From NCBI GenBank assembly GCA_020725385.1, contig DYFC01000017.1, forward strand, positions 9,055 through 73,054: a stretch of DNA of 64,000 nt, in the 5' to 3' direction. Positions within the stretch are counted from its first letter, which is position 1, and each line of letters begins with the position of its first letter. The position numbers were made by a program, and so were the translations under genes. The stretch is from Nitrospira japonica (GTDB lineage: Bacteria > Nitrospirota > Thermodesulfovibrionia > Thermodesulfovibrionales > SM23-35). The notes below the pieces were generated by a model. The model made no database searches. It saw only the letters and a list, made by a program, of their open reading frames with translations, and was not told where the DNA came from. Positions 10,874 through 62,094 of the stretch are shown here, one piece after another.

Positions 10874-10999
10874 AATTTTATCCTTACAGCACTTTTTATG
10901 AATTTAAAAAGGTTTAGGGGTCAATCAGTCATCTCCTTACTTTTCATATTTTATTGATTTATATTAAAGTATAACCTTCTTTTGTTTCAACAGAATTTT

Positions 11000-11330: not shown

Positions 11331-11401
11331 GCAACTTTGCTTTTTTTTACTAATAAAAGGTAAAATTGAATCTAACGTATATGAGAGGAGGTTTTTTCCC
11401 T

Positions 11402-11605: not shown

Positions 11606-11781
11606 AAAGACAAGAATTCATTAGGGAACTTGTCAATGCAGGATGTTACCTCAAAAGGCATGGTTCAAACCATGATATTTACATAAATCCTAAAACTGGC
11701 AGTAAATCACCTGTTCCAAGACACCATGAAATCAAAGGCAGTCTTTGTAAACTAATTAAAAAACAACTTGGTATCATATAA
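11602..11781 (+). CDS. hicA: HicA-family mRNA interferase toxin (absent from ORF track)
   Basis: My translation: LKRQEFIRELVNAGCYLKRHGSNHDIYINPKTGSKSPVPRHHEIKGSLCKLIKKQLGII*. TTG start overlaps the hicB stop in the same TTTGA arrangement as the first pair. Confidence 0.7.
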   Translation: MKRQEFIRELVNAGCYLKRHGSNHDIYINPKTGSKSPVPRHHEIKGSLCKLIKKQLGII

Positions 11782-11800
11782 ATATATCTATTAACCCGAT

Positions 11801-11949
11801 GACAATAACGAACAAGCCTGCAAGCAAACAACAATCGTTCTATGTACAATGTTCTAAGTTCTAAGTTCTATGTTCCATGTTCTACGTTCTAAGTTCTATG
11901 TTAAAAAGATAGCAGCAGCAGAAGAAGAAGTTATCAAGAAGCCAAGCAA
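11801..11949 (+). repeat. 149-bp direct repeat R1, right copy
   Basis: See 11000..11148. Together the two copies bracket the hicBA pair 11402..11781. Confidence 0.9.
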
Positions 11950-12233
11950 AAAAGACCGTAAAACGTAAAGTGTAAGTATGATTAAAAGCGTAGAGCAGAG
12001 AGCTAAGAGCATAGAGTGAAAAAACCGTAAGGCGTAAAACGTGGAAAACCGGGAGTCGTGTCCGTTGTCCGTGACCGTAAGCAAAAACGTGAACTGTAAA
12101 CACGTAAAATGTAAGGCGTGAAATGTAAAAAAGTAGCCAAGTAGCCAAGAAGCCAAGAACAGCCATAAAGCGTAAAGCGTTAAACGCTAAATGTGGATGA
12201 TGATTTTCTTACACTTTATTTGTACGATTTATG
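11950..12233 (+). repeat. Heptad-repeat mosaic element, copy B
   Basis: Order of modules: CGTAAAN heptads, AGAGNNN x4, core homologous to copy A, (T/A)AGCCAAG x3, then forward/reverse heptads (gcgtaaagcgttaaacg ... cttacactttatttgtacgattt). The two ORFs 11882..12166 and 11896..12156 are translations of this repeat. Confidence 0.85.
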
Positions 12234-12381
12234 AAAATTTGTATTCTAACTAAAAAATGCAGATATTGTCATAAAGCCCCTTAAATGCTGGAGATGCTAA
12301 AATAATCTGAACTTGTTCAGAATCTAAATCTTTCCACCTTTAAACTAACAGGGATTAGAGGTGATTTTATGTTTCTTACTC

Positions 12382-12648
12382 TTAGACTATTCCTTTTTCT
12401 ATTAATACCCTTAGATAGTCTTCGCGTGACATGGGACATGATATTAAATCTTTAAAGTCTTTTTGTGAAAGCTTTAATTGTCCTCTAATTTTATTTACTA
12501 CCTTTTCTGAAATTTCTCCTTTACCATGTGAATAATGAACCCTAAGAATTTTTTTTCCGTTAACTATCAGCCATCCATAATTATGACCTGTGGAACGCAC
12601 TTGTAGTTTTAGTTTCCTAAAGACTTTTTCAATAGAGCTTTTCTTCAT
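12382..12648 (-). CDS. Divergent HicA-like toxin candidate
   Basis: 88 aa. The pattern LKLQVRSTGHNYGWLIVNGKKILRVHYSHGKGEI resembles HicA (G.H....P.H.GK.I) with a C-terminal extension. 4-nt overlap with the upstream gene. Confidence 0.45.
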   Translation of the reverse strand: MKKSSIEKVFRKLKLQVRSTGHNYGWLIVNGKKILRVHYSHGKGEISEKVVNKIRGQLKLSQKDFKDLISCPMSREDYLRVLIEKGIV

Positions 12649-12989
12649 TTAATTTCAATAAATTCTTCTAAATATGCAAGCCATTTTGCTGGCAATTTCC
12701 CTAAATTCGTTCTGTCGTTTTTCAAATCCTCATACAATGCTATAATCTCATCGCATAAAAGATTAATCGCCTCAAACTCTGTATCAGCATATGCAAAAGC
12801 TTCAATTTCATCAAGAGAAGAAATGACTGAATTTTTATCCATCTCTATGGTAATATAAAGGGGTTTTCTTAAAACATAATTTGGATGCTTCAAAGAGTTT
12901 ATAGGCAATACTTTATAATTTTTTTCTATTTTATTAAGTATTTTTCTCGAAAGTAAATTATATTGCTTATCAGTCAATATTGTCTGCAT
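12645..12989 (-). CDS. HicB-like antitoxin candidate
   Basis: 114 aa. The segment LYITIEMDKNSVISSLDEIEAFAYADTEFEAINLLCDEIIALYEDL resembles the HicB/UPF0150 beta-alpha core. Translationally coupled to 12382..12648. Confidence 0.45.
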   Translation of the reverse strand: MQTILTDKQYNLLSRKILNKIEKNYKVLPINSLKHPNYVLRKPLYITIEMDKNSVISSLDEIEAFAYADTEFEAINLLCDEIIALYEDLKNDRTNLGKLPAKWLAYLEEFIEIK

Positions 12990-20701: not shown

Positions 20702-20849
20702 GGGGCCGGGGTATGACTTTACAGAATCATAGAGGAGGTGAGAAAGACGGTGTTTTAAGTAAAAATTCCCATTTTTTCTCTATGTTATAAAGTAATTCTT
20801 TATTTCTCCTCGATAAATTTGTCATAACAACCAGCCTGTTAAATATTCC

Positions 20850-21025
20850 CACCCTGCCGTGTAAAGCGAAATTAGATCCCATTTTTGTTATAAGTGGGTG
20901 CCCTGAAAGGACCCGTAGGCTTCCCAGTATTAAACAGGGCATGCACAAAAGGCCTTTACACAGGCTCCCTAAAGATCTAATTTGCCGGATCAACATGTTC
21001 GCCTTATCACTAACAGGGCAGGTAA
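20850..21025. ncRNA. Candidate structured RNA / GC-rich element of unknown class
   Basis: Locally GC-rich island in an AT-rich spacer. Complementary pairs: 20856..20866 with 20954..20965 (11 bp, 1 bulge); 20869..20878 with 20974..20983 (10 bp); 20899..20905 with 20935..20941 (7 bp). The strand is not determined. Confidence 0.25.
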
Positions 21026-21129
21026 TTTATTACCCTGAAATATATTCCTCCTGAATTAATTAATTTTATTCTTAGATTTAGAATATACTATAAAAGGGTT
21101 TTAAGGCAAGAAGAAAATTTTAAAATTAA

Positions 21130-21842: not shown

Positions 21843-22787
21843 TTATTTAATCTCTATTTGTTCGGCAATTTCAATCCTATTCCTACCCTTATTTTTTGCT
21901 TTGTAAAGAGCAATATCAGAGGCATCAATTAATTTTTCAGCGCTGTTAACTTTAAGTTCTGGCATAGTTGCAATCCCTATACTTACAGTTATCTGCTGAT
22001 TTATTCCGGTGTAATTAAAATCAGAAACCATTCTTAGAATTCTTGAGGCAACAATGAAAGCGTCTTCCTTTTTAGTGCCGGGAAGAAGAACTACAAATTC
22101 TTCACCACCCCATCTTGCGATAGTATCAATTTTTCTAAGGCAGTTCTTTATATTCTGGGCAATTTCTTTTAATACTATATCTCCTGCACTGTGACCAAAA
22201 TTATCATTGACATCTTTGAAATGGTCGACATCAACCATCAGACAAGAGAGAGGAGAATTATACCTTAAAGTTCTTGCAAATTCTTTCTGAATAATAAGGC
22301 TAAAGTGCCGTCTATTATAAATTTCAGTTAAAGAGTCTGTTATAGCAAGAATTTCGACTGTTGATAATACATCTTCGAGTTGACGGTTTTTTTCCTTGAG
22401 TTCATCTCTAAGATATTTTGTTCTTAAAGATGCATATATCCTTGCATTAAGTTCGATTTCATTATAAGGTTTTGGTAAATAATCATCAGCACCTGCTTCA
22501 AGCCCATCAACTTTCTCCAAAACAGACCCCTTTACAGTAAGCATAATAATAGGAATTCCTCTTGTATCTTTATTCAATCTTAACCATCTACATACTTCGC
22601 TACCATCCATGTCAGGTAAAATTCTGTCAAGTAAAATGAGCTCTATATTTTCGGTTTTAGCGATTTTCAAAGCTGATTTGCCGTTTTCGGCTAAGATAAC
22701 ATCGTAACCGTTTGCTTCAAGATATTTTTTTGTTTTATCTGCCTGCAGTTGATCATCTTCAACGAGAAGAATTGATGCTTTTGCCAT
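21843..22787 (-). CDS. Response regulator-diguanylate cyclase (REC + coiled-coil + GGDEF)
   Basis: ILLVEDD...LLD...KP REC motifs. GGEEF active site with an RKID I-site 5 residues upstream. Confidence 0.9.
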   Translation of the reverse strand: MAKASILLVEDDQLQADKTKKYLEANGYDVILAENGKSALKIAKTENIELILLDRILPDMDGSEVCRWLRLNKDTRGIPIIMLTVKGSVLEKVDGLEAGADDYLPKPYNEIELNARIYASLRTKYLRDELKEKNRQLEDVLSTVEILAITDSLTEIYNRRHFSLIIQKEFARTLRYNSPLSCLMVDVDHFKDVNDNFGHSAGDIVLKEIAQNIKNCLRKIDTIARWGGEEFVVLLPGTKKEDAFIVASRILRMVSDFNYTGINQQITVSIGIATMPELKVNSAEKLIDASDIALYKAKNKGRNRIEIAEQIEIK

Positions 22788-22978: not shown

Positions 22979-23908
22979 TTATTCCGATATAATTACTCTA
23001 TTTCGCCCGTGTTTTTTTGCTTCATACATTGCTGTATCAGCTTTATGTATTAATTTCTCAGCGTTGTCAATAGATTCATCGGGTATGCTGGCAATTCCTA
23101 TACTTATTGTAATTGGTCTATTGACACCTTCAAATTCATTATCAGAAATAGCTTTTAAAATTCTTTGTGCAGCGACAAATGTATCTTCTTTTGTAGTTCT
23201 TGGTAAGATTGCAATGAATTCTTCACCGCCCCAACGGGCAACAACATCTACTTTGCGAAGATTGTTTTTAATAATATTGGCGATGCCTTTTAGAACAACA
23301 TCACCAATACGATGTCCGAATTCGTCATTAACACTTTTAAAATTATCAATATCTATCATCATACAAGATGCGGGCGTTTTGTACCTTAAAGTATTTTCGA
23401 ATTCTTTTTCAATAACAGATTCAAAATATCTTCTATTATAAATCTGGGTTAATGAATCTGTTATTGCAAGAATTTCGAGTTTTGTAAGCAAGTCTTCAAG
23501 CTGACGGTTCTTCTCACGAAGTTCATCCTGCAGTGCTTTTGTTCTAAGACAGGCATATATACGGGCGCTTAGTTCAGATTCATTAAATGGTTTTGTAAGA
23601 TGGTCGTCAGCGCCTGCTGTAAGGCTTGCTACTTTATCCGATGTTGAGCCCTGTGCTGTAAGCATTATGATAGGTATTCCTCTTGTATCCTGATTCAATT
23701 TCAACCATCTGCAAACTTCATTACCGCTCATATCAGGTAAAACTAGATCGAGAACAACCAGATCAATATCCTGCGTTTTAACAATTTTGATAGCTGATTT
23801 TCCATCTTCTACCCATGTGACATTATAACCCGATGATTCAAGGTAATGTTTTGTCGCACTACCCTGAACTTTATCGTCTTCTACAAGTAATATTTTCGAT
23901 TCAGCCAT
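22979..23908 (-). CDS. Response regulator-diguanylate cyclase, paralog of 21843..22787
   Basis: Same architecture, GGEEF with an RKVD I-site. Roughly 60% identical to the neighbour by eye. Confidence 0.9.
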   Translation of the reverse strand: MAESKILLVEDDKVQGSATKHYLESSGYNVTWVEDGKSAIKIVKTQDIDLVVLDLVLPDMSGNEVCRWLKLNQDTRGIPIIMLTAQGSTSDKVASLTAGADDHLTKPFNESELSARIYACLRTKALQDELREKNRQLEDLLTKLEILAITDSLTQIYNRRYFESVIEKEFENTLRYKTPASCMMIDIDNFKSVNDEFGHRIGDVVLKGIANIIKNNLRKVDVVARWGGEEFIAILPRTTKEDTFVAAQRILKAISDNEFEGVNRPITISIGIASIPDESIDNAEKLIHKADTAMYEAKKHGRNRVIISE

Positions 23909-26639: not shown

Positions 26640-28505
26640 TTAAAAACTAAAACTCATGCCCGCTGAAAATTGAACAGGCGGCATTGGATAATCTTTAAGA
26701 ATCTCGAAATTTCTATCAAATATATTTTTACCTATGACAAAGATTTCTGTAGGAATCTTCCAGATATCTAATTTTTGAGCAATTTTCCCGTCGAGCAAGA
26801 AATAGCAACCCGGATCTCCTTTCTCTACTTTATAACGATGTATGTAACTTCCTTCAAAAGCAATAGTATTTCCCTTGAAAGGATGCAGGGAAACATTTCC
26901 TTTAATCTGATGGCGGGTGCTAAAGCGTATTTTTTTGTCTGAAGTTCTATCCTGAGGGTCCATAAAAGTATAGCTTAACCCGATGTCAAGATAATCAAGG
27001 TGTAAGCTACTTTCTGTTTCAAATCCAGCAACACGTGTTTTTGCAATATTCACAGGAGACCATTTGAAAGGGCTAATTTCCTGCCATTGGATAAGGTCTT
27101 TTGATTGTTTAATAAATCCAACTGCTTTTATATTTGCAATCTTTCCGAAGAATTTATTTATATTTACCTCAAATTCTGTTGACTTTTCCGGTTTTAAATC
27201 CGGATTACCCTCAGCCCATCCAGTATCAGGCCAGTAAAGAGCATTCATTTCAGGAATACGGAATCCCTGTCCTATAGAGAAAGAAAGATTTGTCTCGTAC
27301 GGGAGTTTTATTAATAAAGAAGCTTTCGGGCTGAACCTATCCTCTGATGAAATGGAATCATATCTTAGCCCGAGAGTCAATATTAAATATTTTTTCAAAG
27401 AAGTTTCATTTTGAAGGAATATCCCTTTTCTTGTTCTGCTATGTCTTCCAATTGACTCATTTTCATTAATATTGTTAGTGCTATCAATATCCTCTTCGAG
27501 AACTTCAATTCCACCTGTCAAGAGATTCATTGAGCCTAAAGAAAGACTATGCTGAAGATCAAATCCAAGAACATGGTTTTTATGAGTATTATCTTCAAGA
27601 CCTGGATTCATATAATCAATTGTTGAGTTGTGACTGTAAAATTTCATGATAGAATCTTTATATTTAATATTAATCCCGGCAAGAAAATTCTTGTCTTTTT
27701 CGTTTGCTTTTGGTGTTGGCCATGATAATGAACCCGGAGAGCCAGCGTCTCTGAAATTATAATCAAAGGAAATATCTGTTCTAATGTCTTTAGAAATATC
27801 ATAGGTTATTTTAACGCTTGCGGATTCTGAATCATATTCACTATTTTCTCTAAAACCGGCTGAGGAATTTTTTGATAGAGAAAGATAGAAACCAGCGTTT
27901 CTTATGCGTTGTGATGTATTAAAATTCAAGTCTTTTGTAACAAATCTACCATATGATGCTGAGATACTTGTCTTTGGAGTTTCAGGTATTTTTGTAATGA
28001 TATTTATAACACCTCCCATAGCATCCGCACCATATAATGCTGATGAAGCTCCACGCAATATCTCTATTCTTTCTATATTATCAACCGGTATTGAAAGAGC
28101 GTTTATGTCAACCTGTCCATCGCCCGGCTTGTTAAGTCTCTTACCATCAATAAGCACAAGAACCTGTGCTGAAGTTGAAGACCTCAGACTTACACTCGAT
28201 GATGAACCTTTATTACCATATTCAAAGAAAGTTAAACCTGTAATGTTCCTTAGAATCTCGGATATATTTGTATAACTGCTATTTTCAATTTCCTTTTTTG
28301 TTATAACAGTAACATCCTGTGGAATATCCTCAATTGATTCCTCAATTTTTGTTGCAATAACAACAATCTCCTCAAATGATACGACTTTTTCTTCTGCAGA
28401 TAAAGAAGTAATAAGTGAAAAGTAATAAGTGAGAAGTAAAGAAATGCAAATAATGAATTTTGAAAAGTGATGACTGATGACTGATGACTGATAACTTTTT
28501 TCCAT
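26640..28505 (-). CDS. btuB: TonB-dependent outer-membrane receptor, cobalamin/corrinoid type (riboswitch-controlled)
   Basis: TonB box-like EEIVVIATK, plug domain motifs, terminal aromatic F. GAGGGAGGA precedes ATG 28505 (the track TTG start at 28535 is unlikely). A cobalamin riboswitch lies directly upstream. Confidence 0.85.
   Translation of the reverse strand: MEKSYQSSVISHHFSKFIICISLLLTYYFSLITSLSAEEKVVSFEEIVVIATKIEESIEDIPQDVTVITKKEIENSSYTNISEILRNITGLTFFEYGNKGSSSSVSLRSSTSAQVLVLIDGKRLNKPGDGQVDINALSIPVDNIERIEILRGASSALYGADAMGGVINIITKIPETPKTSISASYGRFVTKDLNFNTSQRIRNAGFYLSLSKNSSAGFRENSEYDSESASVKITYDISKDIRTDISFDYNFRDAGSPGSLSWPTPKANEKDKNFLAGINIKYKDSIMKFYSHNSTIDYMNPGLEDNTHKNHVLGFDLQHSLSLGSMNLLTGGIEVLEEDIDSTNNINENESIGRHSRTRKGIFLQNETSLKKYLILTLGLRYDSISSEDRFSPKASLLIKLPYETNLSFSIGQGFRIPEMNALYWPDTGWAEGNPDLKPEKSTEFEVNINKFFGKIANIKAVGFIKQSKDLIQWQEISPFKWSPVNIAKTRVAGFETESSLHLDYLDIGLSYTFMDPQDRTSDKKIRFSTRHQIKGNVSLHPFKGNTIAFEGSYIHRYKVEKGDPGCYFLLDGKIAQKLDIWKIPTEIFVIGKNIFDRNFEILKDYPMPPVQFSAGMSFSF
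28403..28496 (-). repeat. Heptanucleotide repeats inside the btuB signal-peptide coding region
   Basis: Plus strand: gatgact x3 perfect (28469..28489) plus gataact; NNNAAGT x5 (28403..28437: aagaagt aataagt gaaaagt aataagt gagaagt). Confidence 0.85.
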
Positions 28506-28559
28506 TTTTCCTCCCTCGGGAAATAATTTATTCAAAGCATGTTGTTAGCTCTGAAATTT

Positions 28560-28812
28560 TAGTTTCTACTGATCTGGATAGGTCTTCCGGCTTCAGGCAA
28601 TTTTATGTTTCCTACTAACCTTCCTTCCCGGAGAAACCGTTCAAACCATTTAAGCAGTTAAAACAGTTCTACTCCAGTGGATTAAAGACAGTGATTGAGA
28701 TTCTTCTAATTCACTACCTCACTAATTTCTAATTTACTGTCTTTCCGGGTTTTCGTTCCATTCACGGCTGCGGGGCAGCGATGGCTTTCCACCATTCTTC
28801 CCTGAATCCAGA
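28560..28812 (-). promoter_or_regulatory. Cobalamin (AdoCbl-type) riboswitch 1
   Basis: Minus-strand reading contains agggaagaatggtggaaagccatcgctgccccgcagccgtga, then ccactggag, then a B12-box-like gaagccggaagacctatcc. Sits upstream of btuB. Confidence 0.85.
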
Positions 28813-28880
28813 TTTATTAATAATTACCTGAATACATAGACTTAATTTATATCACCTCCTTTCATGTAAATTTTGATTAA

Positions 28881-29666
28881 CTAAAAAACCCTGTACCATA
28901 TCAGAGTAAAAAACAAAAATAATAATTCCGAAATTTCGCTTATAGCACCGAGAGTATCTCCTGTAAGACCTCCAAATTGTTTATTAAACAAAATGATTGA
29001 TAATCTACAAAAAATATATATCAAAGAAATTAAAAGGCAGCAGAAGATGAAGTCCATAACTTGGAAGGAATGATAAAAAATTGTTTTTAAAGATAAAAAT
29101 AAAATAATGAAAAATAAGAGAGAGATAAGGACTTCTTTAAATTTTAATTTTCCTATAAACAGATTTCCCATGCCTTCTTGTCTTGCCGGTTTAGCTTGAA
29201 ACATCGAGATAATAATTGACAATTTAGAAAAAACGGGCATTAAAAGAATTGATGTGTAAAAAACTGATGAGGTATAAAGCATAAGATTCTTTATAGAAAG
29301 AAATTTCAAAAGCAATATAAAAAATATTGCTGTAACACCAATTGGTCCTGCTGTGCCCTCTTTCATAATGGATAGTTTTTTTTCTTTGTCACCATTCATT
29401 GCAATACCATCAAAAGTATCTGAAAGTCCATCAATATGAAAGCCAGCATTATATAAAACAGAAGTCATTAGAATAATTCCTGCAACTATCTCATTATCAA
29501 AGAGATGTTTGGTTACTAAATAAATCAAAATAAGAATTATGCCCTGAAATACGCCAACCGGAACAAATGCAATTGAGCATCTTGGAATCCCGGATTTTTC
29601 AATGCTTATATTTTTGTTTAATGGAATAATTGTTAAAAGCTGTAAAGCAACTATGAACGTTTTCAT
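28881..29666 (-). CDS. cobS: Adenosylcobinamide-GDP ribazoletransferase (cobalamin synthase)
   Basis: Polytopic membrane protein with the DGLSDTFDG motif. Overlaps cobT by 4 nt. Confidence 0.85.
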   Translation of the reverse strand: MKTFIVALQLLTIIPLNKNISIEKSGIPRCSIAFVPVGVFQGIILILIYLVTKHLFDNEIVAGIILMTSVLYNAGFHIDGLSDTFDGIAMNGDKEKKLSIMKEGTAGPIGVTAIFFILLLKFLSIKNLMLYTSSVFYTSILLMPVFSKLSIIISMFQAKPARQEGMGNLFIGKLKFKEVLISLLFFIILFLSLKTIFYHSFQVMDFIFCCLLISLIYIFCRLSIILFNKQFGGLTGDTLGAISEISELLFLFFTLIWYRVF

Positions 29667-30739
29667 TCCTGAACCTTTTTATTTGATACTCCAGCTTTAT
29701 CAAATGTAGCCATTTCTTTATATATCTTTAGTCCTGCTTCTATGATAGTTAACGCAAGTGCTGCGCCGGTACCTTCACCGAGTCTCAAATCAAGGTCAAG
29801 TATGGGCTTAATACCTATTTTTTCAAGAATAGCTTTATGACCCTTTTCAACAGAATTGTGTGCGGCAAACATGTAATCTTTTGTATTTGATTCAATCGAA
29901 TAGGCGATAAGAGCACCTGCTGTTGAGATAAAGCCATCTATAACAACAGGTATTTTCTTTGCAGAAGCACCTAATATAAGACCTGCAATGCCTCCAATTT
30001 CAGCTCCTCCGACTTTTGAGAGAATGTCAATTGGATCAGTAATGTCAGGCTTATTAATTAAAATTGCTTTTTCTATTATTTCACATTTTTTTCTTAATGT
30101 AATATTATCAATTCCAGTGCCTCTGCCTGTTACTCCATAAATCGGTTTGCCTGTTAATAAAGAAGCAATTGCAGATGATGGTGTTGTATTCCCAATTCCC
30201 ATTTCACCTGTGCAGAAAATGTTATAGCCTTCATTTGCATATTCAATTGCAATCTCTATTCCTGTCTCTATACACTTTATAGCTTCATCCCTTGTCATAG
30301 CAGGATAATTCTTAATGTTTTTAGTGCCATAGATAACTTTTCTTGTAATAAAATGGCAATTTTCGGAAATATATATGGATTTCTCAAAGTCATACTTAAC
30401 TCCCAAATCAATGACAACAACATCCGCGCCTGCATGTTTTGCAAGAACATTTATACCCGCTCCGCCATTAATAAAGTTAAAGATCATTTGTTTTGTAACT
30501 TCTTGTGGATATGCACTTACTCCTTCTTCTGCAACTCCATGGTCACTCGCAAAAATGAAAATTGCTTTTTTATCCAATACTGGCATTGGATTTTCAGAGA
30601 TTACCACAAGTCTTTTTGCGAATTCCTCAAGTCTTCCAAGACTTCCTTGAGGCTTTGTTAGATTATCAAGATGTTCTTGAGCAATTTCACCAAATTTTGT
30701 ATTAACAGGTTTTATACTTTTAATTATTTTCTTAAGCAT
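29663..30739 (-). CDS. cobT: Nicotinate-nucleotide--dimethylbenzimidazole phosphoribosyltransferase
   Basis: KPQGSLGRLEE, GEMGIGNTT, LRLGEGTGA motifs. Confidence 0.9.
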   Translation of the reverse strand: MLKKIIKSIKPVNTKFGEIAQEHLDNLTKPQGSLGRLEEFAKRLVVISENPMPVLDKKAIFIFASDHGVAEEGVSAYPQEVTKQMIFNFINGGAGINVLAKHAGADVVVIDLGVKYDFEKSIYISENCHFITRKVIYGTKNIKNYPAMTRDEAIKCIETGIEIAIEYANEGYNIFCTGEMGIGNTTPSSAIASLLTGKPIYGVTGRGTGIDNITLRKKCEIIEKAILINKPDITDPIDILSKVGGAEIGGIAGLILGASAKKIPVVIDGFISTAGALIAYSIESNTKDYMFAAHNSVEKGHKAILEKIGIKPILDLDLRLGEGTGAALALTIIEAGLKIYKEMATFDKAGVSNKKVQE

Positions 30740-31277
30740 GGGTTCCCTTTATTTTTAATGGTATCCCGGCAATCATCATATATACTTCATCTGCAATTTC
30801 TGCAATGCTTTGATTCAATATTCCTAAATTGTCTCTAAATTTCCTTGCAAGTTTATTTTCAGGAACAATACCCGAACCAACCTCATTGGAGACAATAAAA
30901 ACTGTACAATAAAGAGAAGATAGAGTGTTACAAAGAGATTCTATATCCTTTTCAACATTCTTATTATTAAAAAAAAGATTAGAAAGCCAGAGAGTTAGAC
31001 AATCAATGACTATTACATTATATTTGTCTTTTATATTTTTGATTACATCTGAAATTTTAACCGGCTCTTCATATGTATCCCATTCATTACCTCTTTGCTT
31101 TTTATGTTTTTCTATCCTCTCTTTCATTTCCTCATCCTGTATGGGAGTATCGCCATACGTCCATATCGCTGTTGCAATAAATGCTTTATTTCCCAAAATC
31201 TTTGATGCTTCTTTCAAAGCAAAAGTGCTTTTACCACTTCTTGCTCCGCCTGTTATAAAAACTATTTTTTTATTCAT
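30732..31277 (-). CDS. cobU: Bifunctional adenosylcobinamide kinase / adenosylcobinamide-phosphate guanylyltransferase
   Basis: P-loop ITGGARSGKS, 181 aa, within the cob cluster. Confidence 0.85.
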   Translation of the reverse strand: MNKKIVFITGGARSGKSTFALKEASKILGNKAFIATAIWTYGDTPIQDEEMKERIEKHKKQRGNEWDTYEEPVKISDVIKNIKDKYNVIVIDCLTLWLSNLFFNNKNVEKDIESLCNTLSSLYCTVFIVSNEVGSGIVPENKLARKFRDNLGILNQSIAEIADEVYMMIAGIPLKIKGTHA

Positions 31278-35690: not shown

Positions 35691-35759
35691 CTTTTCTCCC
35701 TCGAGAAAATTTTCAGGTTGTTTGTCCAAGTTTTAAAGTTCTTTTTAAACTTTTAACTT

Positions 35760-35997
35760 GGAACTTTTTGCTCTGGATAGGTCTTCCGGCTTAGGGCAGT
35801 TTAATTTCTTTTCTACTAACCCGCCTTCCCGGAGAAACCGTTCAAACTGTTCAATCAGTTCTAACAGTCTTACTCCAGTGGCTTAAAGACAGTGATTGAA
35901 ATTCTTCTAATTCACTGTTTTCCCGGGTTTTCGTTCCCATCACGGCTGCGGGGCAGCGGGAGAATTGCCATTGGCTCACTCCTCTTCCCTGACTTCC
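35760..35997 (-). promoter_or_regulatory. Cobalamin (AdoCbl-type) riboswitch 2, paralog of riboswitch 1
   Basis: Minus-strand reading contains cagggaagaggagtgagccaatggcaattctcccgctgccccgcagccgtga, then gccactggag, then taagccggaagacctatcc. Long stretches are near-identical to 28560..28812. Confidence 0.85.
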
Positions 35998-36175
35998 GAA
36001 TATTTTATAACATATCACACAGATAATTTTCAATTGAAAAGCGAATAGCGTAGAGCGAAGAGCAAAGAGAAAAAAATTTATAACTCGATACACGAAACTG
36101 AAAATTAGCTAACTGTAAAAAAGTTGTTAGTAATCTGTATGGAACGGATATGGAGAAAGGACACTGCTAACGGAT

Positions 36176-53727: not shown

Positions 53728-54282
53728 TTAATAAACAAAATTATTATCTGCTTCCTTCAAATAAGGATGCTTTTTATCTTTTTCTGAAAGTATAGGTTCT
53801 AATATAGGCCAGTTAATATTTATATCAGGATCATTCCATATTATACCTCTATCACAAACAGGGGAATATTCTCTTGTGCATTTATAAAGAACTTCAGCAG
53901 TTTCTGAGATTACAACAAAACCATGTGCAAAACCTGATGGGACATAGAGCATTAACCTGTTTTCTCCTGATAACTCAACTCCAATCCATTTTGAATAATA
54001 AGGTGAATTTTTACGTATATCCACTACAACATCAAATATTTTACCTCTTAAGCACTGAACAAGCTTTGCCTGAGCATCGGGATTTTTTTGATAATGAAGT
54101 CCGCGCAAAACCCCTTTATATGAAAATGAGAAATTATCCTGTAAAAAGTATTCTTTGATTCCAGCTTTTAGAAAGTCTGAATATTTGTAAGTCTCAGCAA
54201 AATACCCTCTTGAATCAGAAAAAATTTCAGGTGTTATTAAAATTACTCCCGGGATTTCTAATTGCTTAAAAGTAAATGGCAT
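53728..54282 (-). CDS. rfbC: dTDP-4-dehydrorhamnose 3,5-epimerase
   Basis: D.RG.F.E, LRGLHYQ, KLV.C..G...DV.VD.R motifs. Confidence 0.9.
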   Translation of the reverse strand: MPFTFKQLEIPGVILITPEIFSDSRGYFAETYKYSDFLKAGIKEYFLQDNFSFSYKGVLRGLHYQKNPDAQAKLVQCLRGKIFDVVVDIRKNSPYYSKWIGVELSGENRLMLYVPSGFAHGFVVISETAEVLYKCTREYSPVCDRGIIWNDPDININWPILEPILSEKDKKHPYLKEADNNFVY

Positions 54283-54286
54283 ATAT

Positions 54287-55159
54287 TTATTTAATCAATC
54301 TCATTAAATATTTTCCGTATTCATTCTTATTAAGATTTTGGGCAAGTTTAATTAACTGTTCCTTATTTATGTAACCTAATTTAAAAGCTATTTCTTCAAT
54401 ACATGCAATCTTAAGCCCCTGTCTTCTCTCGATTGTTGCTATAAATTCACCTGCTTCAAGAAGGCTTTCATGTGTCCCTGTGTCAAGCCATGCAAAACCT
54501 CTACCCATTAATTCTACCCTTAATTTTTTATTTTTCAGGTATTCTTTGTTTACATCTGTTATTTCAAGTTCTCCTCTATGTGAGGGTTTTATTCTTTCTG
54601 CGATACAAATTACTTGATTATCATAGAAATAGAGTCCTGTAACCGCATATTTTGATTTTGGAGTTTTTGGTTTTTCTTCGATTGAAAGAACATTACCGTT
54701 TTCATCAAACTCTACAACCCCGTATCTTTCAGGATCATTTACATAATATCCAAATACTGTGGCTCCTCCAAGATTCTCAATATCAGAATATGCTTTTTTC
54801 AGTAAATTTGTGAAACCATGACCGTAAAATATATTATCTCCAAGAACAAGGCAAACATTATCATCTTTTATGAATTCCTTAGCGATTATGAATGCCTGGG
54901 CAATTCCACCGGGATGTGGCTGTTCTTTGTATGAAAAATTCAGACCAAGATTTTCTCCTGTCCCAAAAATCTGGATAAAGCGGGGCAAATCAGCAGGTGT
55001 TGAAATGATAATAATATCCCTTATCCCTGCGAGCATTAAAACAGATAAGGGATAATAAATCATCGGTTTATCGTATATAGGTAACAACTGTTTACATACC
55101 CCTAAAGTAATGGGGTATAATCTTGTTCCGCTTCCGCCTGCTAAAATTATGCCTTTCAT
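54287..55159 (-). CDS. rfbA: Glucose-1-phosphate thymidylyltransferase
   Basis: [29 protein letters not shown] motifs. Confidence 0.9.
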
Positions 55160-56443: not shown

Positions 56444-56926
56444 ATGTGGTATGCAATTTATTTGAAATCAGGAAAAGAAGATTCGGTTTCCTCACATCTC
56501 AAGAATGCTGGGATTGAAGTAATTAATGCAAAGCTAAAAATAAAAAAGTTTAAAAATAATAAATTAACAGAGGTTATCGAGCCTTTATTTCCCTGTTATA
56601 TATTTGCCAATTTTGATAAGGATAAATATTCTCATATGATTACGTTTACCAGAGGAGTTCGTTATATAGTTGGAAAAAGTAATCCGTTAGTTGTAAGTGA
56701 AGATATAATTCAAGCTATTAAAGAAAATATGAATGAAAATAATTTTGTAATTATAAAACCCCGTAAATTTTCAAAAGGGGAAAAAGTTATTATTAAAGAA
56801 GGTCCTTTGAAAAATTTTTATGGAATATTTGAGAAAGAGCTTAAAGGACCAGAAAGAGTAATGATACTTCTTGAAACTCTTAATTATAAAGTGGAGATTG
56901 ATGGAAGTTATCTTGAAATAGCTTAA
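56444..56926 (+). CDS. NusG-paralog transcription antiterminator (UpxY/RfaH-like)
   Basis: The MWYAIYLKSGKE NGN-domain start with PLFPCYIF, plus a C-terminal KOW (KGEKVIIKEGPLKNFYGIF). Confidence 0.75.
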   Translation: MWYAIYLKSGKEDSVSSHLKNAGIEVINAKLKIKKFKNNKLTEVIEPLFPCYIFANFDKDKYSHMITFTRGVRYIVGKSNPLVVSEDIIQAIKENMNENNFVIIKPRKFSKGEKVIIKEGPLKNFYGIFEKELKGPERVMILLETLNYKVEIDGSYLEIA

Positions 56927-57022: not shown

Positions 57023-58303
57023 ATGGTAAAAAAATCAGAAAATAAAGAATATATCAGACCCCTTGAAAGAAAAGTCGAAGCTTTAAGAATTCTTACAGAG
57101 GTATCTTCAATAATATCATCTACACTTGATATCCGAGAATTGATGTCTCTTGTTATGGAAAAAGCAAAAGAAATTTTAAGTGCAGATGCATGTTCGATTC
57201 TTATTTATAACAAAAAGACCAATAAACTCGAGTTTGAAGTTGCTATATGCGGTGAAGAATCAACTTCAGAAATGTTAAAGGAAAAAATAACTCTTGATAT
57301 GGGGCAGGGCATAGCTGGTTGGGTTGCACAGAACCAGCAAATTCTTGTAATTAAAGATGTAAAAAAAGATAAAAGGTTTTTTCATGATGTAGATAAAATG
57401 ACTGGTTTTGAAACAAAATCTCTTATCGCTGCTCCTTTAATTGGAAGGCGTGGTTTAATCGGAGTTGCCGAAATAATCAATCCGCAAAAAGAAGATTATG
57501 ACCTTGAAATATTAAGTATCCTTACAAAGCATTTTGCAACTGCAATAGAGAATGCTATATACCATTCTGAATCTCTTGAAAGAGAAAGAATTAAACAGGA
57601 ACTCGAAATTGCAGCAACATTGCAAAAAAGTTTTTTGCCTGAAAACCCTATTTTTGAAAAAGGAAAAATTAAAGTTTTCGCAATAAACATACCAGCAAGA
57701 CATGTAGGTGGAGACCTTTATGATTTTGTAGAACCGGTCAGGGGAAAAGTAGGAGTTTTTATTGGAGATGTTTCAGGTAAAGGTGTATCTGCTGCTTTAT
57801 ATATGGCTAAAATTATAAGTGATTTCAGGTATATTGCACGTGGAATTAATTCTCCTTCAGAAGTTATGGGTAAATTGAATAAAGTACTATCTGGTGCGCC
57901 TAGAGGGATGTTTCTTACTGCTATATATCTTATTATTGATGTGGGAAATGGAGAATCGGTTATTTCAGTTGCAGGGCATCCTCCCTGCATACTCATAAAT
58001 AAAGATGGAATAAAGGTTCTGGAAATGCAGACGGGGCCGCCGCTTGGAATTATTGAAACTGATTTTAAGGAGAATAAGATTAGTCTAAGGAGCGGTGACA
58101 GATTAATTATGCTTACAGATGGAGTATTTGAAGCAAAAAATATTTCAGGAGAAAGAATAGGTTTTAATGCTATATTGGAGTTTATTGGAGAAAACCAAAA
58201 TATTGAAAATTTGTCTGAAAAAATAATAGGCCATATTAATGAATATTCAAAAAATACAGAAATGGCTGATGATATCACAATTGTAGAAATTAAAATCCGG
58301 TGA
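57023..58303 (+). CDS. GAF-domain PP2C-type serine phosphatase (RsbU/SpoIIE family)
   Basis: GAF region (aa ~25-180). PP2C motifs are GGDLYDF, GDVSGKGVSAA, TDGVFEA, DDITIVE. Confidence 0.85.
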   Translation: MVKKSENKEYIRPLERKVEALRILTEVSSIISSTLDIRELMSLVMEKAKEILSADACSILIYNKKTNKLEFEVAICGEESTSEMLKEKITLDMGQGIAGWVAQNQQILVIKDVKKDKRFFHDVDKMTGFETKSLIAAPLIGRRGLIGVAEIINPQKEDYDLEILSILTKHFATAIENAIYHSESLERERIKQELEIAATLQKSFLPENPIFEKGKIKVFAINIPARHVGGDLYDFVEPVRGKVGVFIGDVSGKGVSAALYMAKIISDFRYIARGINSPSEVMGKLNKVLSGAPRGMFLTAIYLIIDVGNGESVISVAGHPPCILINKDGIKVLEMQTGPPLGIIETDFKENKISLRSGDRLIMLTDGVFEAKNISGERIGFNAILEFIGENQNIENLSEKIIGHINEYSKNTEMADDITIVEIKIR

Positions 58304-58707
58304 AAGATTCGGTTAAAATAATAATACCTTCACATCCAAAGTATTTATCTGTGGTCAGGAATGTTACTTCAAAGATTGGTGAAATATACGGGATTGATGA
58401 AACAATAGTGAATGATTTAAAACTTGCAATTGATGAAGCATGTACAAATATAATCAGACATGCTTATAAAGGTGATACAACAAAGAGAATTATAATTAGA
58501 TATACAGTTAATCCCGGGCAATATACTGTTGTTCTTGAAGATAATGGAATAAAAGCCGATAAAAATAAACTAAAGGGAAGAGATCTGAACGATATAAAAC
58601 CTGGCGGACTCGGAATACATTTTATAAAAAGAGTTTTTGATATTTTTATGCTTGATGAAAAAAAGAAAAAAGGCAATAGGCTTATTCTTGTTAAATATCT
58701 TAAATGA
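58300..58707 (+). CDS. Anti-sigma-type serine kinase (RsbW/SpoIIAB-like HATPase_c)
   Basis: EACTNIIRHAY N-box and DNG...GGLGIHFI G-boxes. 4-nt overlap on both sides. Confidence 0.8.
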   Translation: MKDSVKIIIPSHPKYLSVVRNVTSKIGEIYGIDETIVNDLKLAIDEACTNIIRHAYKGDTTKRIIIRYTVNPGQYTVVLEDNGIKADKNKLKGRDLNDIKPGGLGIHFIKRVFDIFMLDEKKKKGNRLILVKYLK

Positions 58708-59036
58708 AAACTGAAATAACAGATTTTAAAGGGAATAAAAGAATTAAGATAACAGGTGATATTGATATGCATACTTCTCCTGAACTCAGAGAAGTTCTTT
58801 TATCAATAATAAAGAAGTCAAAAAATCAGTGCGTCTGTGTGGATTTTACGGATGTTACTTATATAGATAGCTCAGGTATTGCCACATTTGTTGAAGGACT
58901 TAAAGCAATAAGGGCATCCGGGAGTAGATTATTTTTCTACGGATTACCTGAAAGTATAATGGAAATCTTCAGGTTCTCAAGACTTGATAGGGTATTTGAG
59001 ATATTCAGGACATTTGAAGATGCCTTCGGAATCTAA
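58704..59036 (+). CDS. STAS-domain protein (anti-sigma antagonist RsbV/SpoIIAA-like; possible MlaB analog)
   Basis: 110 aa with the YIDSSGI phosphorylatable-serine motif. Directly abuts and overlaps mlaE. Confidence 0.85.
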   Translation: MKTEITDFKGNKRIKITGDIDMHTSPELREVLLSIIKKSKNQCVCVDFTDVTYIDSSGIATFVEGLKAIRASGSRLFFYGLPESIMEIFRFSRLDRVFEIFRTFEDAFGI

Positions 59037-59826
59037 GAATATTGTAGAAGTTATAGGAAGTAAAACAAAACCTATTAAGATAAGCATACATAATATTTCA
59101 TGCATTATTAATGATATTTTTTACTGGACTTTTATCTCTCCTTTTAAAGGATTTCCCATAAGGTTTAAGGCTTGTGTTAATGAAATGGTTAAAGCAGGAT
59201 ATAATTCAGTTCCTATAATCTCTGTAATCTCTTTTTTTATAGGTGTTATTCTTGCTTTTCAGGCTGCTTATCAACTTAAAAAAGTAGGGGCTTTGATTTA
59301 TGTTGCAAATCTCGTTGGAGTGTCTCTTACAAGAGAACTCGGACCGATAATTACAGCAATAATTGTCTCTGGAAGAAGCGGCTCTGCTTATGCCGCAGAG
59401 ATAGGTTCAATGAAAGCTGCTGAAGAGATTGATGCATTGATAAGTATGGGAATAAATCCTGTCAGGTTTATTGTTGTTCCAAAACTCATAGCTCTGATGG
59501 TAATGGTTCCCGCTCTTACGATTTTTTCTGACTTGATTGGAATATTCGGTGGCTTCGTATTATCAACTACTATTCTTGAAATACATCCTTCAAATTATTT
59601 CCAGCAAACTATAAATGCACTTCTTGTTAAAGACATCCTAACCGGGCTCATGAAAGCATGGGCATTCGGAGTTGTAATAACAATAGTCGGTGTTTATCAA
59701 GGGTTTATGGTAAAAGGCGGAGCTGAAGAAGTAGGCCGTAGAACTACATCAGCTGTTGTTGCTTCTATCTTTTTAGTAATTGTATCGGATTTATTTTTCA
59801 CAGCATTATTTTATTATTTCACGTAA
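59020..59826 (+). CDS. mlaE: MlaE-family ABC permease
   Basis: REL.P.....V.GRSGSA..AEIG.M...EEIDA motif. ATG 59020 is preferred over the track start at 58984. Confidence 0.85.
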   Translation: MPSESKNIVEVIGSKTKPIKISIHNISCIINDIFYWTFISPFKGFPIRFKACVNEMVKAGYNSVPIISVISFFIGVILAFQAAYQLKKVGALIYVANLVGVSLTRELGPIITAIIVSGRSGSAYAAEIGSMKAAEEIDALISMGINPVRFIVVPKLIALMVMVPALTIFSDLIGIFGGFVLSTTILEIHPSNYFQQTINALLVKDILTGLMKAWAFGVVITIVGVYQGFMVKGGAEEVGRRTTSAVVASIFLVIVSDLFFTALFYYFT

Positions 59827-59827
59827 T

Positions 59828-60613
59828 ATGGAAAAAGCAATAGAAGTAGAAAACTTAGTAACACATTACGGAGATAGAGAGATATTAAAGAATATATCTT
59901 TCTCAATACCAAAAGGTTCGATTACTGTAATACTCGGAGGAAGCGGATGCGGTAAAAGCACTTTGCTAAAACACCTTATAGGATTGCTCAAGCCAACTTC
60001 AGGAAGGATAATTATAAAGGGAAATGATATAACAAAAATGAATGAAGATCAGATGAATGAGATAAGAAAAAAAATGGGTATACTTTTTCAGGGTGCTGCT
60101 TTGCTTAATTCAATGACAATTCTTGATAATGTTGCTTTGCCTTTACACGAACATACAAAACTTAAAGAATCAACAATTGAAATAATGGTCAGGATGAAAC
60201 TTGACCTTGTTGGGCTGTCAGGTTTTGATTCTTTCTATCCTTCTCAACTTTCAGGTGGAATGAAAAAAAGGGCAGGACTTGCGAGAGCCCTTGCCTTAGA
60301 CCCTGAAATGCTTTTTTTCGATGAGCCTTCAGCAGGACTTGATCCTGTTACTGCTGCCGGACTTGATGAACTTATTATTAAATTGAATAAGGTTTTCAGA
60401 ATGACAATTATAGTGGTAACTCATGAATTGCCGAGTGTATTCAAAATAGCTGATTATGTTATTATGCTTGACAAAGGCTATGTGATTTTCTCGGGAACTC
60501 TTAATGAACTGAAGACTTCTGATAATCCAAGAATCAGAATGTTTCTTGAAAGGCAGCCTGAAGAGGAAAAATATTCACCAGATGATTATTTCAAGGTAAT
60601 TGCAGGAGAGTAA
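59828..60613 (+). CDS. mlaF: MlaF-family ABC ATPase
   Basis: GGSGCGKST Walker A, LSGGMKKRAGLARA signature, FFDEP Walker B. ATG 59828 lies 1 nt after the mlaE stop. Confidence 0.9.
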   Translation: MEKAIEVENLVTHYGDREILKNISFSIPKGSITVILGGSGCGKSTLLKHLIGLLKPTSGRIIIKGNDITKMNEDQMNEIRKKMGILFQGAALLNSMTILDNVALPLHEHTKLKESTIEIMVRMKLDLVGLSGFDSFYPSQLSGGMKKRAGLARALALDPEMLFFDEPSAGLDPVTAAGLDELIIKLNKVFRMTIIVVTHELPSVFKIADYVIMLDKGYVIFSGTLNELKTSDNPRIRMFLERQPEEEKYSPDDYFKVIAGE

Positions 60614-60614
60614 T

Positions 60615-61490
60615 ATGAAAGAAGAGTTTAAGGCCGGTATAATTATTGTTTCAGCTATTGTAATCCTTAGTATTTTCATAATCCTTATAGGTGGCGGCCA
60701 GTTGTTCGAGAAGTTTGATATTTACTATGTAAAAGTAATGAACGCAGCAGGGCTCGAGACAGGTGCTCAGGTAAAGCTCGGAGGAGTTAAAGTTGGCAGG
60801 GTTTTAAATGTAAAACCTCCGGTATCTTTTGGTGAACCTGTTAATATAGAAATAGGTCTAAAAAAAGGCACAATTCTATATAAAGGAACAAAAGCTTATA
60901 TAACACAAATTGGTTTTGTTGGAGATATTTACCTGCTTCTTTCTGTAAAAGATACAACCAATGAAATTATAAAAGTCGGCTCGGTTATTCCATCTGAAGA
61001 GCATATGCAGATGGATGTTCTCATGGCAAAGCTGAATAACCTTTCTTCATCTGTTGATAAACTCATAAATGACGTAGATAAAATATTTAGCGAAAGAAAT
61101 GTAAAAGGAATCGAGAATATTATAGGCAATACTAATAAAGCAATTGTCACAAGTTCAGAAAATATTGATAAAGTTGCGCTTGGCTTGAAGAATACAACAG
61201 AAAGACTTGAAAAAGTATTAAATGAGATTGAAAGTCTTCTTAAAGAAAATAAAGGTGATGTTGCCCAACTTCTGAAAAGGGCGCGTGAAAATATAGACAA
61301 AGCCGGTGATATGATGAAAAGCATAGAAAAAACTTCAAAATCGGTTGATAAAACAGTTTTGCACCAATCAAAAAATATTGACCAATTAATTAACTCTATG
61401 ACAAGAACTACCGAAGAGCTTCAGGAAGTTTTACAAGAAATAAAAAATAAACCATGGAGTCTTATTTATAAAGATGGGAGGGGAGAATAA
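60615..61490 (+). CDS. mlaD: MlaD/MCE-domain substrate-binding protein with long C-terminal coiled coil
   Basis: N-terminal TM, MCE domain (V.LGGVKVGRV), helical tail. Confidence 0.8.
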   Translation: MKEEFKAGIIIVSAIVILSIFIILIGGGQLFEKFDIYYVKVMNAAGLETGAQVKLGGVKVGRVLNVKPPVSFGEPVNIEIGLKKGTILYKGTKAYITQIGFVGDIYLLLSVKDTTNEIIKVGSVIPSEEHMQMDVLMAKLNNLSSSVDKLINDVDKIFSERNVKGIENIIGNTNKAIVTSSENIDKVALGLKNTTERLEKVLNEIESLLKENKGDVAQLLKRARENIDKAGDMMKSIEKTSKSVDKTVLHQSKNIDQLINSMTRTTEELQEVLQEIKNKPWSLIYKDGRGE

Positions 61491-61491
61491 G

Positions 61492-62094
61492 ATGGAAAAG
61501 AAGACTAAACTAATTTTAATATACCTTTCAATAATAGTATTTTCTATAAGTTTATTAATGAGTGCATGTACAATGCCCCAGACAAAAATTTATAGCCTTG
61601 ATTTGAATTATCCTTATAATGAAAAAGATTTGAAAAGCAAATTCTCTGAAAAGGCAGTTACGATTATTGTTAATGCACCAAGACATCTTTCGCAACCTTA
61701 TATTGTCTATAGAACCTCACCATATGAAATGGAAATATCAAAATACTCAAAATGGGAAGCTTCTCCGCAAGAGATTATAAAAAAAGCAATGAAAGATTAC
61801 CTTTCATCCTCAAGAATATTTAAAGAAGTTAAAACATCATATACTTTTCAGGAAGGCTATTATACTCTTGAGATTGATTTGAAAAAATTTGAAAGATTTG
61901 ATTCAGAGAATAAATCATATGGAGAATTATTATTTGATTATATACTAATTTCTCCTGAAGGAAATGAGATTGTGTGCTCAACAATAAATAAAAGAATGGA
62001 ACTTCAGGAAAAATCATTTCTCGGTCTTGCAAAAATTCTTACTAATGCAATAAAAGAAGCCTCCATTGAAATCGGTGATAAGATTGTAAAATGA
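61492..62094 (+). CDS. ABC-type transport auxiliary lipoprotein (DUF330/PqiC-like)
   Basis: Signal peptide ending in LLMSAC (lipobox-like). Size and position downstream of an MCE protein fit this family. Confidence 0.6.
   Translation: MEKKTKLILIYLSIIVFSISLLMSACTMPQTKIYSLDLNYPYNEKDLKSKFSEKAVTIIVNAPRHLSQPYIVYRTSPYEMEISKYSKWEASPQEIIKKAMKDYLSSSRIFKEVKTSYTFQEGYYTLEIDLKKFERFDSENKSYGELLFDYILISPEGNEIVCSTINKRMELQEKSFLGLAKILTNAIKEASIEIGDKIVK

Follow-up and report, generated by a model that had tools for sequence, protein, structure and literature searches.

Can the partner-switching modules that bacteria use to control sigma factors also control a transporter? This question is raised by seven genes at positions 57023 to 62094 on the plus strand of a 64,000-nucleotide (nt) stretch of Nitrospira japonica DNA (assembly GCA_020725385.1, contig DYFC01000017.1, positions 9,055 to 73,054), which is referred to here as the window. 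The cluster unites the genes of an Mla-type ATP-binding cassette (ABC) transporter with those of a STAS protein, of a kinase similar to RsbW and of a GAF-PP2C phosphatase. An initial annotation had suggested that phosphorylation of an MlaB-like STAS subunit switches lipid transport on and off, and comparative genomics supports this interpretation at the level of sequence. The recurrence of the arrangement in at least four phyla suggests that a transporter is switched by phosphorylation, and not that a sigma factor is controlled. As our best overall explanation, the seven genes probably constitute one operon, encoding a trans-envelope, mammalian cell entry (MCE)-type lipid ABC transporter together with its dedicated phospho-switch.

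Layout of the cluster and conservation of its core

The seven open reading frames (ORFs) are co-directional and overlap or abut throughout:

57023-58303, plus strand: GAF-PP2C (SpoIIE-family) Ser/Thr phosphatase, 426 amino acids (Pfam GAF, 5e-15; SpoIIE, 6e-45)
58300-58707, plus strand: RsbW-type GHKL serine kinase, 135 amino acids, GTG start (Pfam HATPase_c_2, 5e-25; top NCBIfam match RsbW)
58704-59036, plus strand: RsbV-type single-domain STAS protein, 110 amino acids (Pfam STAS, 2e-19; TIGR00377, 69.7 bits)
59020-59826, plus strand: MlaE-family ABC permease, 268 amino acids (Pfam MlaE, PF02405, 5e-78; TIGR00056, 243.7 bits, cut-off 212.2)
59828-60613, plus strand: MlaF-like ABC ATPase with a C-terminal extension, 261 amino acids (ABC_tran, 2e-34; top NCBIfam match MlaF PRK11831)
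60615-61490, plus strand: long MlaD with a transmembrane helix, one MCE domain and a helical C-terminal half (Pfam MlaD, PF02470, 1e-8, 35.8 bits, cut-off 25.1; TIGR00996 MCE, 1e-17)
61492-62094, plus strand: PqiC-like ABC_trans_aux (formerly DUF330) lipoprotein, 200 amino acids (Pfam, 1.6e-9, 38 bits, cut-off 26)

The Pfam scores exceed the curated cut-offs for all seven proteins, which upholds the gene identities first assigned. The tight packing described earlier, with overlaps of 4 to 17 nt or gaps of 1 nt, was likewise read at every junction. The GTG start codon of the kinase gene lies on the stop codon of the phosphatase gene (GTGA, 4-nt overlap), and the kinase and STAS genes are joined by ATGA, again with a 4-nt overlap. 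The ATG of the MlaE gene at 59020 precedes the STAS stop codon at 59034-59036, which results in an overlap of 17 nt. The MlaE/MlaF, MlaF/MlaD and MlaD/PqiC-like junctions are 1-nt gaps with ATGs at 59828, 60615 and 61492, and the PqiC-like gene has an alternative ATG at 61474. The genes are thus translationally coupled by overlap and not translationally fused, as the initial annotation had worded it. A promoter scan of the cluster was uninformative, with promoter-like sites at about the shuffled expectation, and a terminator scan revealed none 3' of the cluster. The G+C content is about 32%, and the nearest homologues of the cluster proteins are, by name, proteins of Nitrospirota/Thermodesulfovibrionales metagenome-assembled genomes (MAGs).

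For the comparison with other genomes, GTDB was scanned at one genome per species with two motifs taken from the STAS family alignment; this yielded 177 genomes, from which the best 80 loci were kept. A broader STAS alignment yielded at least 595 metagenomic contigs, of which the best 80 were examined. Loci were chosen by STAS similarity alone, so that neighbouring genes played no role, and the neighbours were then identified by tblastn with the window proteins. In total, 170 loci with 158 unique STAS sequences, 35-91% identical to the STAS protein of the window, were available, and the denominators given in the following refer to loci with room for the gene in question.

Among the best 80 of the 177 GTDB genomes, the kinase gene is located directly upstream of the STAS gene in all 80 loci and the MlaE gene directly downstream in 79, and genes for the PP2C phosphatase, MlaF, MlaD and the PqiC-like protein are present in most. 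The best 80 of the metagenomic contigs contain the kinase-STAS-MlaE core wherever the contig is long enough. Over all loci, an adjacent upstream kinase gene is found in 156 of 157, an adjacent MlaE gene in 143 of 144, a PP2C homologue just upstream of the kinase-STAS pair in 120 of 129 and MlaF in 121 of 128. The contexts of eleven increasingly distant STAS representatives revealed the same core on all ten informative contigs; the contig of the eleventh is too short for the full context and has the kinase gene upstream of STAS. According to the available source names, the core is found in Nitrospirota, Calditrichota/Caldithrix, candidate division KSB1 and Omnitrophota. Thus, the linkage to mla genes, whose loss in related genomes had been named beforehand as decisive against the proposal, is retained across at least four phyla.

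The junctions within the cluster are not equally tight. The STAS/MlaE junction is the tightest, with an overlap of exactly 17 nt in 55 of 79 genome loci and of 20 nt in six more, and the kinase and STAS genes overlap in 64 of 81 loci. The MlaE/MlaF and MlaF/MlaD junctions are looser (median gaps +17 and +18 nt, maximum 3.2 kb). Outside the cluster, the nearest upstream gene belongs to 56 families in 72 loci and the nearest downstream gene to 49 families in 62 loci, with no family in more than seven loci on either side. The constant core between unrelated flanks indicates that the cluster moves as a unit.

Further candidates for membership were rejected, because the flanking genes vary freely among the loci. 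This includes a gene for an RfaH/UpxY-like NusG paralogue at 56444-56926 (plus strand), 97 nt upstream of the cluster (RfaH NCBIfam model, 95 bits, under the cut-off; UpxY, 78 bits), which recurs only in the closest relative (L003). Divergently transcribed genes beside it, at 53728-55159, are dTDP-rhamnose-like by eye.

Sigma factors, variant layouts and the output of the module

In the sigB and spoIIA operons, the gene for the partner of the kinase comes after the kinase gene. A cognate sigma factor gene beside the kinase gene, the usual mark of partner switching, is present neither in the window nor at the approximately 170 loci. In line with the initial annotation, no sigma factor is encoded by the seven cluster genes, and none was found by Pfam scans of 20 further ORFs at 1-31 kb of the window. 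Searches by phmmer with E. coli FliA (E up to 10) and RpoS (E up to 1) detected none among 3,687 ORFs of at least 100 amino acids from the 64-kb window and the loci (about 2 Mb, with a reach of 7-10 kb per locus), a search that covers group 1-3 sigma factors and that extracytoplasmic function (ECF) sigma factors could escape. The search works on a positive control, in which RpoS is recovered with FliA at 40 bits. On this basis a sigma factor was ruled out as a conserved neighbour.

These results bear on the reading that the module is a classical anti-sigma switch. In that case the kinase would hold a sigma factor whose gene lies elsewhere, and the module would share no more than its transcript with an envelope lipid transporter of the same stress regulon. 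The STAS protein and the kinase are closest to RsbV/RsbW and SpoIIAA/SpoIIAB by sequence and fold, sigma-less Rsb modules that act in trans are known from Chlamydia (PMC4552016), and the sigma factor search covered the window and the loci, not whole genomes. Yet no group 1-3 sigma factor gene lies within 7-10 kb at these loci, and the mlaE/F linkage survives in at least four phyla, through rearrangements and a change of sensor, while the other neighbours change, which would be unexpected for a loose regulon. In addition, the order kinase-STAS-transporter is the reverse of rsbV-rsbW-sigB. A classical switch acting in trans is therefore improbable in our view.

The variant layouts concern the question of which protein would contact the transporter. 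In a few loci the order is changed, to kinase-STAS-MlaF-MlaE in L134 and L138, and to STAS-MlaE-MlaF-MlaD followed by the GAF-PP2C and kinase genes on contig P0355. In L174 (421-6159), kinase-STAS-MlaE-MlaF-MlaD is followed by FecR-like and other genes, with a CHASE2-SpoIIE phosphatase gene at the far end. Two loci (L170, L176) are without an adjacent phosphatase gene, and one (L097) has PP2C-STAS-MlaE without a kinase gene. In the Nitrospirota loci L016, L064, L067 and L069, which include Candidatus Magnetobacterium, PP2C-kinase-STAS-MlaE is kept and the MlaF, MlaD and PqiC-like genes are not adjacent. In a metagenomic lineage (L089, 3830-5599), a single protein of 589 amino acids comprises GAF, SpoIIE and HATPase_c_2 domains and represents a phosphatase-kinase fusion. 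Across all these variants, the STAS gene is always beside transporter genes, the kinase and phosphatase genes travel together or with the STAS gene, and the sensor domain varies. The fusion in L089 and the lack of a FliA- or RpoS-like ORF in about 2 Mb plus the window make it unlikely that the kinase is an anti-sigma factor.

The same variants are informative about a different topology, in which the kinase is the output: the RsbW-like protein would bind and inhibit MlaF (or MlaE), and unphosphorylated STAS would capture the kinase without ever touching the transporter. This corresponds to canonical partner switching, as in the action of RsbW on sigma-B; the kinase is a full-length RsbW homologue, and it is linked to the cluster as tightly as STAS (156 of 157 loci). 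On the other hand, it is STAS and not the kinase that always abuts the transporter genes, rearranged orders included, and the conserved 17-nt overlap with mlaE belongs to STAS. A kinase fused to a phosphatase is easier to understand as part of an enzyme pair with STAS as its substrate than as an inhibitor that acts on MlaF stoichiometrically, and the precedents of MlaB and of STAS-MlaE proteins favour STAS as the transporter partner. The kinase is thus unlikely to be the output. Indirect evidence against both this topology and a sigma factor encoded in trans comes from the changed gene orders, from the fusion of phosphatase and kinase and from the conserved overlap of STAS with mlaE.

The STAS protein, its enzymes and the proposed switch

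How would the STAS protein act, if it is the transporter partner? It contains an intact phospho-loop, D55-S56-S57-G58, as the initial annotation had noted, with Ser56 (codon 58869-58871) as the predicted phospho-acceptor. The protein passes the TIGR00377 anti-sigma antagonist model (cut-off 53.45 bits). In an AlphaFold2 model (predicted local distance difference test score, pLDDT, 93), a helix from residue 56 to 72 begins at Ser56, and the nearest folds are RsbV, TM1442 and SpoIIAA. The segment YIDSSGIATFVEGLK is invariant in 24 members of the STAS family, and the DSSG loop and the next helix are invariant also in profile-search matches chosen without the motif. A profile search of 1.84 billion cluster representatives revealed a family of few 50% clusters, followed by a continuum of RsbV-like STAS proteins of about 110 amino acids. 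Because it is RsbV-like by sequence and predicted fold, the STAS protein is placed outside the MlaB family, and an MlaB-like way of working is only proposed for it.

This proposal is derived from E. coli MlaB, in which Thr52 is at the centre of the MlaF interface and the phosphomimetic variant T52E weakens MlaF binding; MlaF joins MlaE/MlaD only with MlaB (PMC7367683). The authors of the MlaFB structure considered phosphoregulation of MlaB an open possibility, with the kinase not known, and asked explicitly what sets the amount of 'active' MlaB (PMC7367683). In an hhalign comparison of the STAS family with E. coli MlaB (85% probability), YIDSSG is opposite RVDTGG, so that Ser56 corresponds to Thr52. 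In single-sequence searches by phmmer, the STAS protein matches E. coli MlaB with an E value of 0.27 and the MlaB chains of Pseudomonas and Acinetobacter with about 1.5e-3. Like an MlaB-type protein, it is encoded together with mlaE and mlaF, overlapping mlaE by 17 nt, and it has a Ser at the Thr52 position, where helix alpha2 of the MlaF-binding face begins. By this analogy, the STAS protein is proposed to work like MlaB, as a subunit of the transporter.

The ATPase would be the docking partner. Its sequence identity to E. coli MlaF is 41%, over an aligned region that enters the C-terminal extension and pairs D253-Y254 with D260-Y261 of E. coli; against the MlaF equivalog PRK11831 it scores 242 bits (cut-off 441). 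Among the homologues in the loci, conservation amounts to about 98% for the Walker A, Walker B and signature motifs and to 82% for Y254. In E. coli, MlaF's C-terminal extension docks at the MlaF-MlaB interface (PMC7367683). Together with synteny, the extension lends only indirect support to the proposed binding of STAS to MlaF.

Both enzymes look active, judged by their conserved catalytic residues. The metal-binding aspartates of the PP2C domain (D231, D249, D366, D416 and D417) are 98-100% conserved in 123 unique homologues, and the N-box (E46/N50), G1 (D81/G83) and G2 (G102-G105) residues of the kinase are 97-99% conserved in 151 unique homologues. The best solved relative of the kinase is B. 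subtilis RsbW (6m36_A, E 1.3e-14, full-length alignment), and its score is under the RsbW equivalog cut-off of NCBIfam (73.8 versus 145 bits). The serine in the DSSG loop of STAS proteins is an established target of kinases of the RsbW type and of phosphatases of the SpoIIE type (PMC11418112). The GAF-PP2C protein is presumed to be the sensor and input, which would dephosphorylate phosphorylated STAS. GAF-PP2C proteins are present in most loci; as a general rule, the control by a GAF-sensed ligand that was suggested initially does not hold, since the GAF domain is replaced by CHASE2 in L174 and no phosphatase is adjacent in L170 and L176.

In the mechanism that we favour and regard as rather likely, the STAS protein is a subunit comparable to MlaB, and the transporter is gated as Ser56 is reversibly phosphorylated. 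Unphosphorylated STAS would dock on the MlaF ATPase via a helical face that has Ser56, where helix alpha2 begins, at its centre, and would permit transporter assembly and ATPase activity, as MlaB does in E. coli. Upon phosphorylation of Ser56 by the RsbW-type kinase, STAS would leave MlaF and transport would decrease; the kinase may also sequester STAS. In response to a GAF-ligand signal, the GAF-PP2C protein would remove the phosphate and transport would resume. The logic would be that of partner switching, in which a transporter ATPase takes the role of the sigma factor and the output is STAS instead of the kinase. The predicted complex consists of MlaE2F2, the long MlaD and the PqiC-like outer-membrane lipoprotein. 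The mechanism is proposed because of the conservation of the locus, its variants, the enzyme motifs and the relation to MlaB, combined with the known behaviour of RsbW/SpoIIAB, SpoIIE/RsbU and MlaFB. Binding of STAS to MlaF, phosphorylation of Ser56, the direction of the switch and the ligand, as well as the lipid substrate and the direction of its transport, are parts of this model that we infer.

Several results weigh against the proposed mechanism. The STAS protein fails the MlaB equivalog model NF033618 (20.1 bits, cut-off 90), and its structural model matches RsbV with a template modelling (TM) score of 0.84-0.94 and a root-mean-square deviation of about 1.2 Å, compared to ranks 35-49 and query-normalised TM scores of 0.62-0.72 for MlaB chains. 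That DSSG is 100% conserved among the scanned loci is in part a circular result, as it was contained in the scan motifs. No STAS-MlaE fusion was found among the best 150 representatives of the profile search, so that the link by fusion comes only from the Brucella literature considered below. A shortened MlaF C-terminal extension also exists in Veillonella, which is without MlaB (PMC10665443), and the extension is thus not specific for MlaB. Finally, the full-length RsbW homology of the kinase means that it could still bind a sigma factor encoded elsewhere.

A further explanation retains STAS as an MlaB-like subunit and dispenses with an on/off switch at Ser56. STAS would be constitutive in assembly, and the kinase and phosphatase would act elsewhere, on MlaF or MlaE directly, or with STAS as a scaffold or a nucleotide or lipid sensor. 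E. coli MlaB works without a known kinase, nucleotide or fatty-acid binding is known for some STAS domains (cited in PMC7367683), and L097 has PP2C-STAS-MlaE without a kinase gene. This explanation has to be set against the established action of both enzyme types on the DSSG serine, against the invariance of the DSSG loop and the following helix even in matches chosen without the motif, and against the overlap of the kinase and STAS genes in 64 of 81 loci. We consider a constitutive STAS subunit very unlikely.

Transporter type, window context and implications for Mla regulation

Genes for MlaE, an MlaF-like ATPase and MlaD are present, and in this respect the assignment to the Mla transporters was correct. 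The encoded MlaD is of the long type, with a helical C-terminal half of about 170 amino acids and weak coiled-coil-type matches over residues 116-287. From a single-sequence AlphaFold2 model (pLDDT 44), only the secondary-structure pattern was used, which predicts a transmembrane helix, a beta-rich part at 38-120 and helices at 128-278. The last protein matches the NCBIfam PqiC model at 2e-5, under the cut-off; its N-terminus (...SLLMSAC), read from the sequence, resembles a lipoprotein signal peptide, and a homologue is encoded by the final gene of the cluster in most loci. Neither the periplasmic carrier MlaC nor the outer-membrane lipoprotein MlaA was found by Pfam and NCBIfam scans of the cluster proteins. 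By its predicted components the transporter matches the type with a long MlaD and a PqiC-like protein, similar to Brucella Mpc, and for 'long MlaD' systems it has been argued that they represent the MlaEFD core in its ancestral form (PMC10665443). For a transporter of this type without MlaA or MlaC in the cluster, a role in outer-membrane lipid asymmetry is an extrapolation.

For the transporter, the closest described system is MpcEFDA of Brucella abortus, an Mla-Pqi chimera that comprises an MlaE-like permease, an MlaF-like ATPase, an elongated MlaD with a helical needle and, in last position, a PqiC-like outer-membrane lipoprotein (PMC12436622). In MpcE, a STAS domain is directly N-terminal to the MlaE part, which corresponds to the position of the STAS gene in the window (PMC12436622). 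In contrast to this fused STAS domain, for which no kinase or phosphatase is described (PMC12436622), the window STAS is a separate, translationally coupled protein that comes with its own kinase and phosphatase. The cluster resembles E. coli MlaFEDB in that an MlaE/MlaF/MlaD-type transporter is encoded with a small single-domain STAS protein, in the correspondence of Ser56 to MlaB Thr52 and in the D-Y residues of the MlaF extension. It differs in several respects: MlaB has no known kinase or phosphatase, its phosphorylation being only speculated (PMC7367683), and is encoded last in mlaFEDCB, whereas the window STAS precedes mlaE; the window cluster is without MlaC or MlaA and has a long MlaD, a PqiC-like lipoprotein and a STAS fold nearer to RsbV.

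With the RsbU/RsbV/RsbW-sigmaB and SpoIIE/SpoIIAA/SpoIIAB-sigmaF modules of Bacillus, the cluster shares a sensor PP2C phosphatase, a GHKL Ser kinase and a DSSG STAS protein, and these modules provide the top sequence and structure matches. Different from them, it has no sigma factor gene in the operon or near the approximately 170 loci, the kinase gene precedes the STAS gene, a permease gene follows and overlaps the STAS gene, and kinase and phosphatase are fused in one lineage. Partner-switching-like modules whose output is not a sigma factor include BtrU/W/V of Bordetella. Others are SypE/SypA of Vibrio fischeri and SiaABC(D) and HsbA of Pseudomonas (PMC4517449, PMC10120452 and PMC7647112). 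In these modules, a STAS-type phosphoprotein is the output under an RsbW-like kinase and a PP2C phosphatase, and SypE contains kinase and phosphatase in one protein, like the L089 fusion. They act on biofilm polysaccharide, on a diguanylate cyclase or on type III secretion, and none of them is reported to control lipid transport or an ABC transporter. As non-sigma outputs of partner switching (SypE/SypA, SiaABC, HsbA) are already known, the present module is not a new category. In our literature search, no paper came up that connects kinases or phosphatases of the Rsb type with Mla/MCE transporters, and a review of STAS-only proteins does not mention Mla. To this extent the statement that partner switching is undescribed for Mla holds, with the reservation that phosphoregulation of E. 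coli MlaB has already been raised as a speculation (PMC7367683).

The window contains further features outside the cluster. A full-length 6S RNA (Rfam RF00013, 75.9 bits) is encoded at 20842-21027 (minus strand), between genes for RNase Y and an ArsR-type helix-turn-helix protein. Cobalamin riboswitches are located at 28560-28826 (minus strand), ahead of a TonB-dependent receptor gene (26640-28535), and at 35759-36034 (minus strand), ahead of an operon ending in CobU, CobT and CobS genes (28881-31277). Tandem paralogous genes at 21843-22787 and 22979-23908 (both minus strand) encode response-regulator/GGDEF diguanylate cyclases with identical domain coordinates. A gene-poor stretch at 9170-12989 within a glycosyltransferase-rich region contains a fragment of an ISL3 transposase gene (9170-9655), two pairs of small genes that are HicA/HicB toxin-antitoxin-like by eye (10512-10873, minus strand; 11366-11781, plus strand) and two identical 28-nt tandem-repeat blocks (11036-11101 and 11837-11902).

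The cluster also concerns the known distribution of MlaB. In a survey of Mla in 1083 genomes, MlaB_Cluster equals 0 for Thermodesulfovibrio yellowstonii, Caldithrix abyssi and a Nitrospirae MAG, each of which has two to three MlaE/MlaD paralogues. If these three genomes carry the cluster, as related MAGs do, the MlaB profile of the survey missed STAS proteins of the window type. In this case, the reported distribution of MlaB-like subunits would need revision, with a STAS family present in lineages scored as MlaB-absent.

As a tentative generalisation, which is possible at best, trans-envelope MCE transporters in many phyla might be gated post-translationally by reversible serine phosphorylation of MlaB-like STAS proteins, by means of their own RsbW-type kinase and sensor PP2C; this would be the first case in nature of a bacterial ABC ATPase with a phospho-switch on an accessory subunit. 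Proteobacterial MlaB, with its orphan conserved Thr52, might then be a kinase-less descendant, and from early in its history partner switching might have acted on transporters and not on sigma factors alone.

The regulation of Mla/MCE lipid transporters is an open question, and in the operons described here, the STAS protein that occupies the MlaB position is naturally accompanied by a kinase and a phosphatase of its own. The idea of MlaB phosphoregulation thereby becomes directly testable with four or five purified proteins. If the proposed switch is true, partner switching would extend from transcription and a few biofilm and secretion outputs to an ABC transporter and to envelope lipid homeostasis, and the variable sensors (GAF, CHASE2) would imply that lineage-specific signals are coupled to lipid transport.

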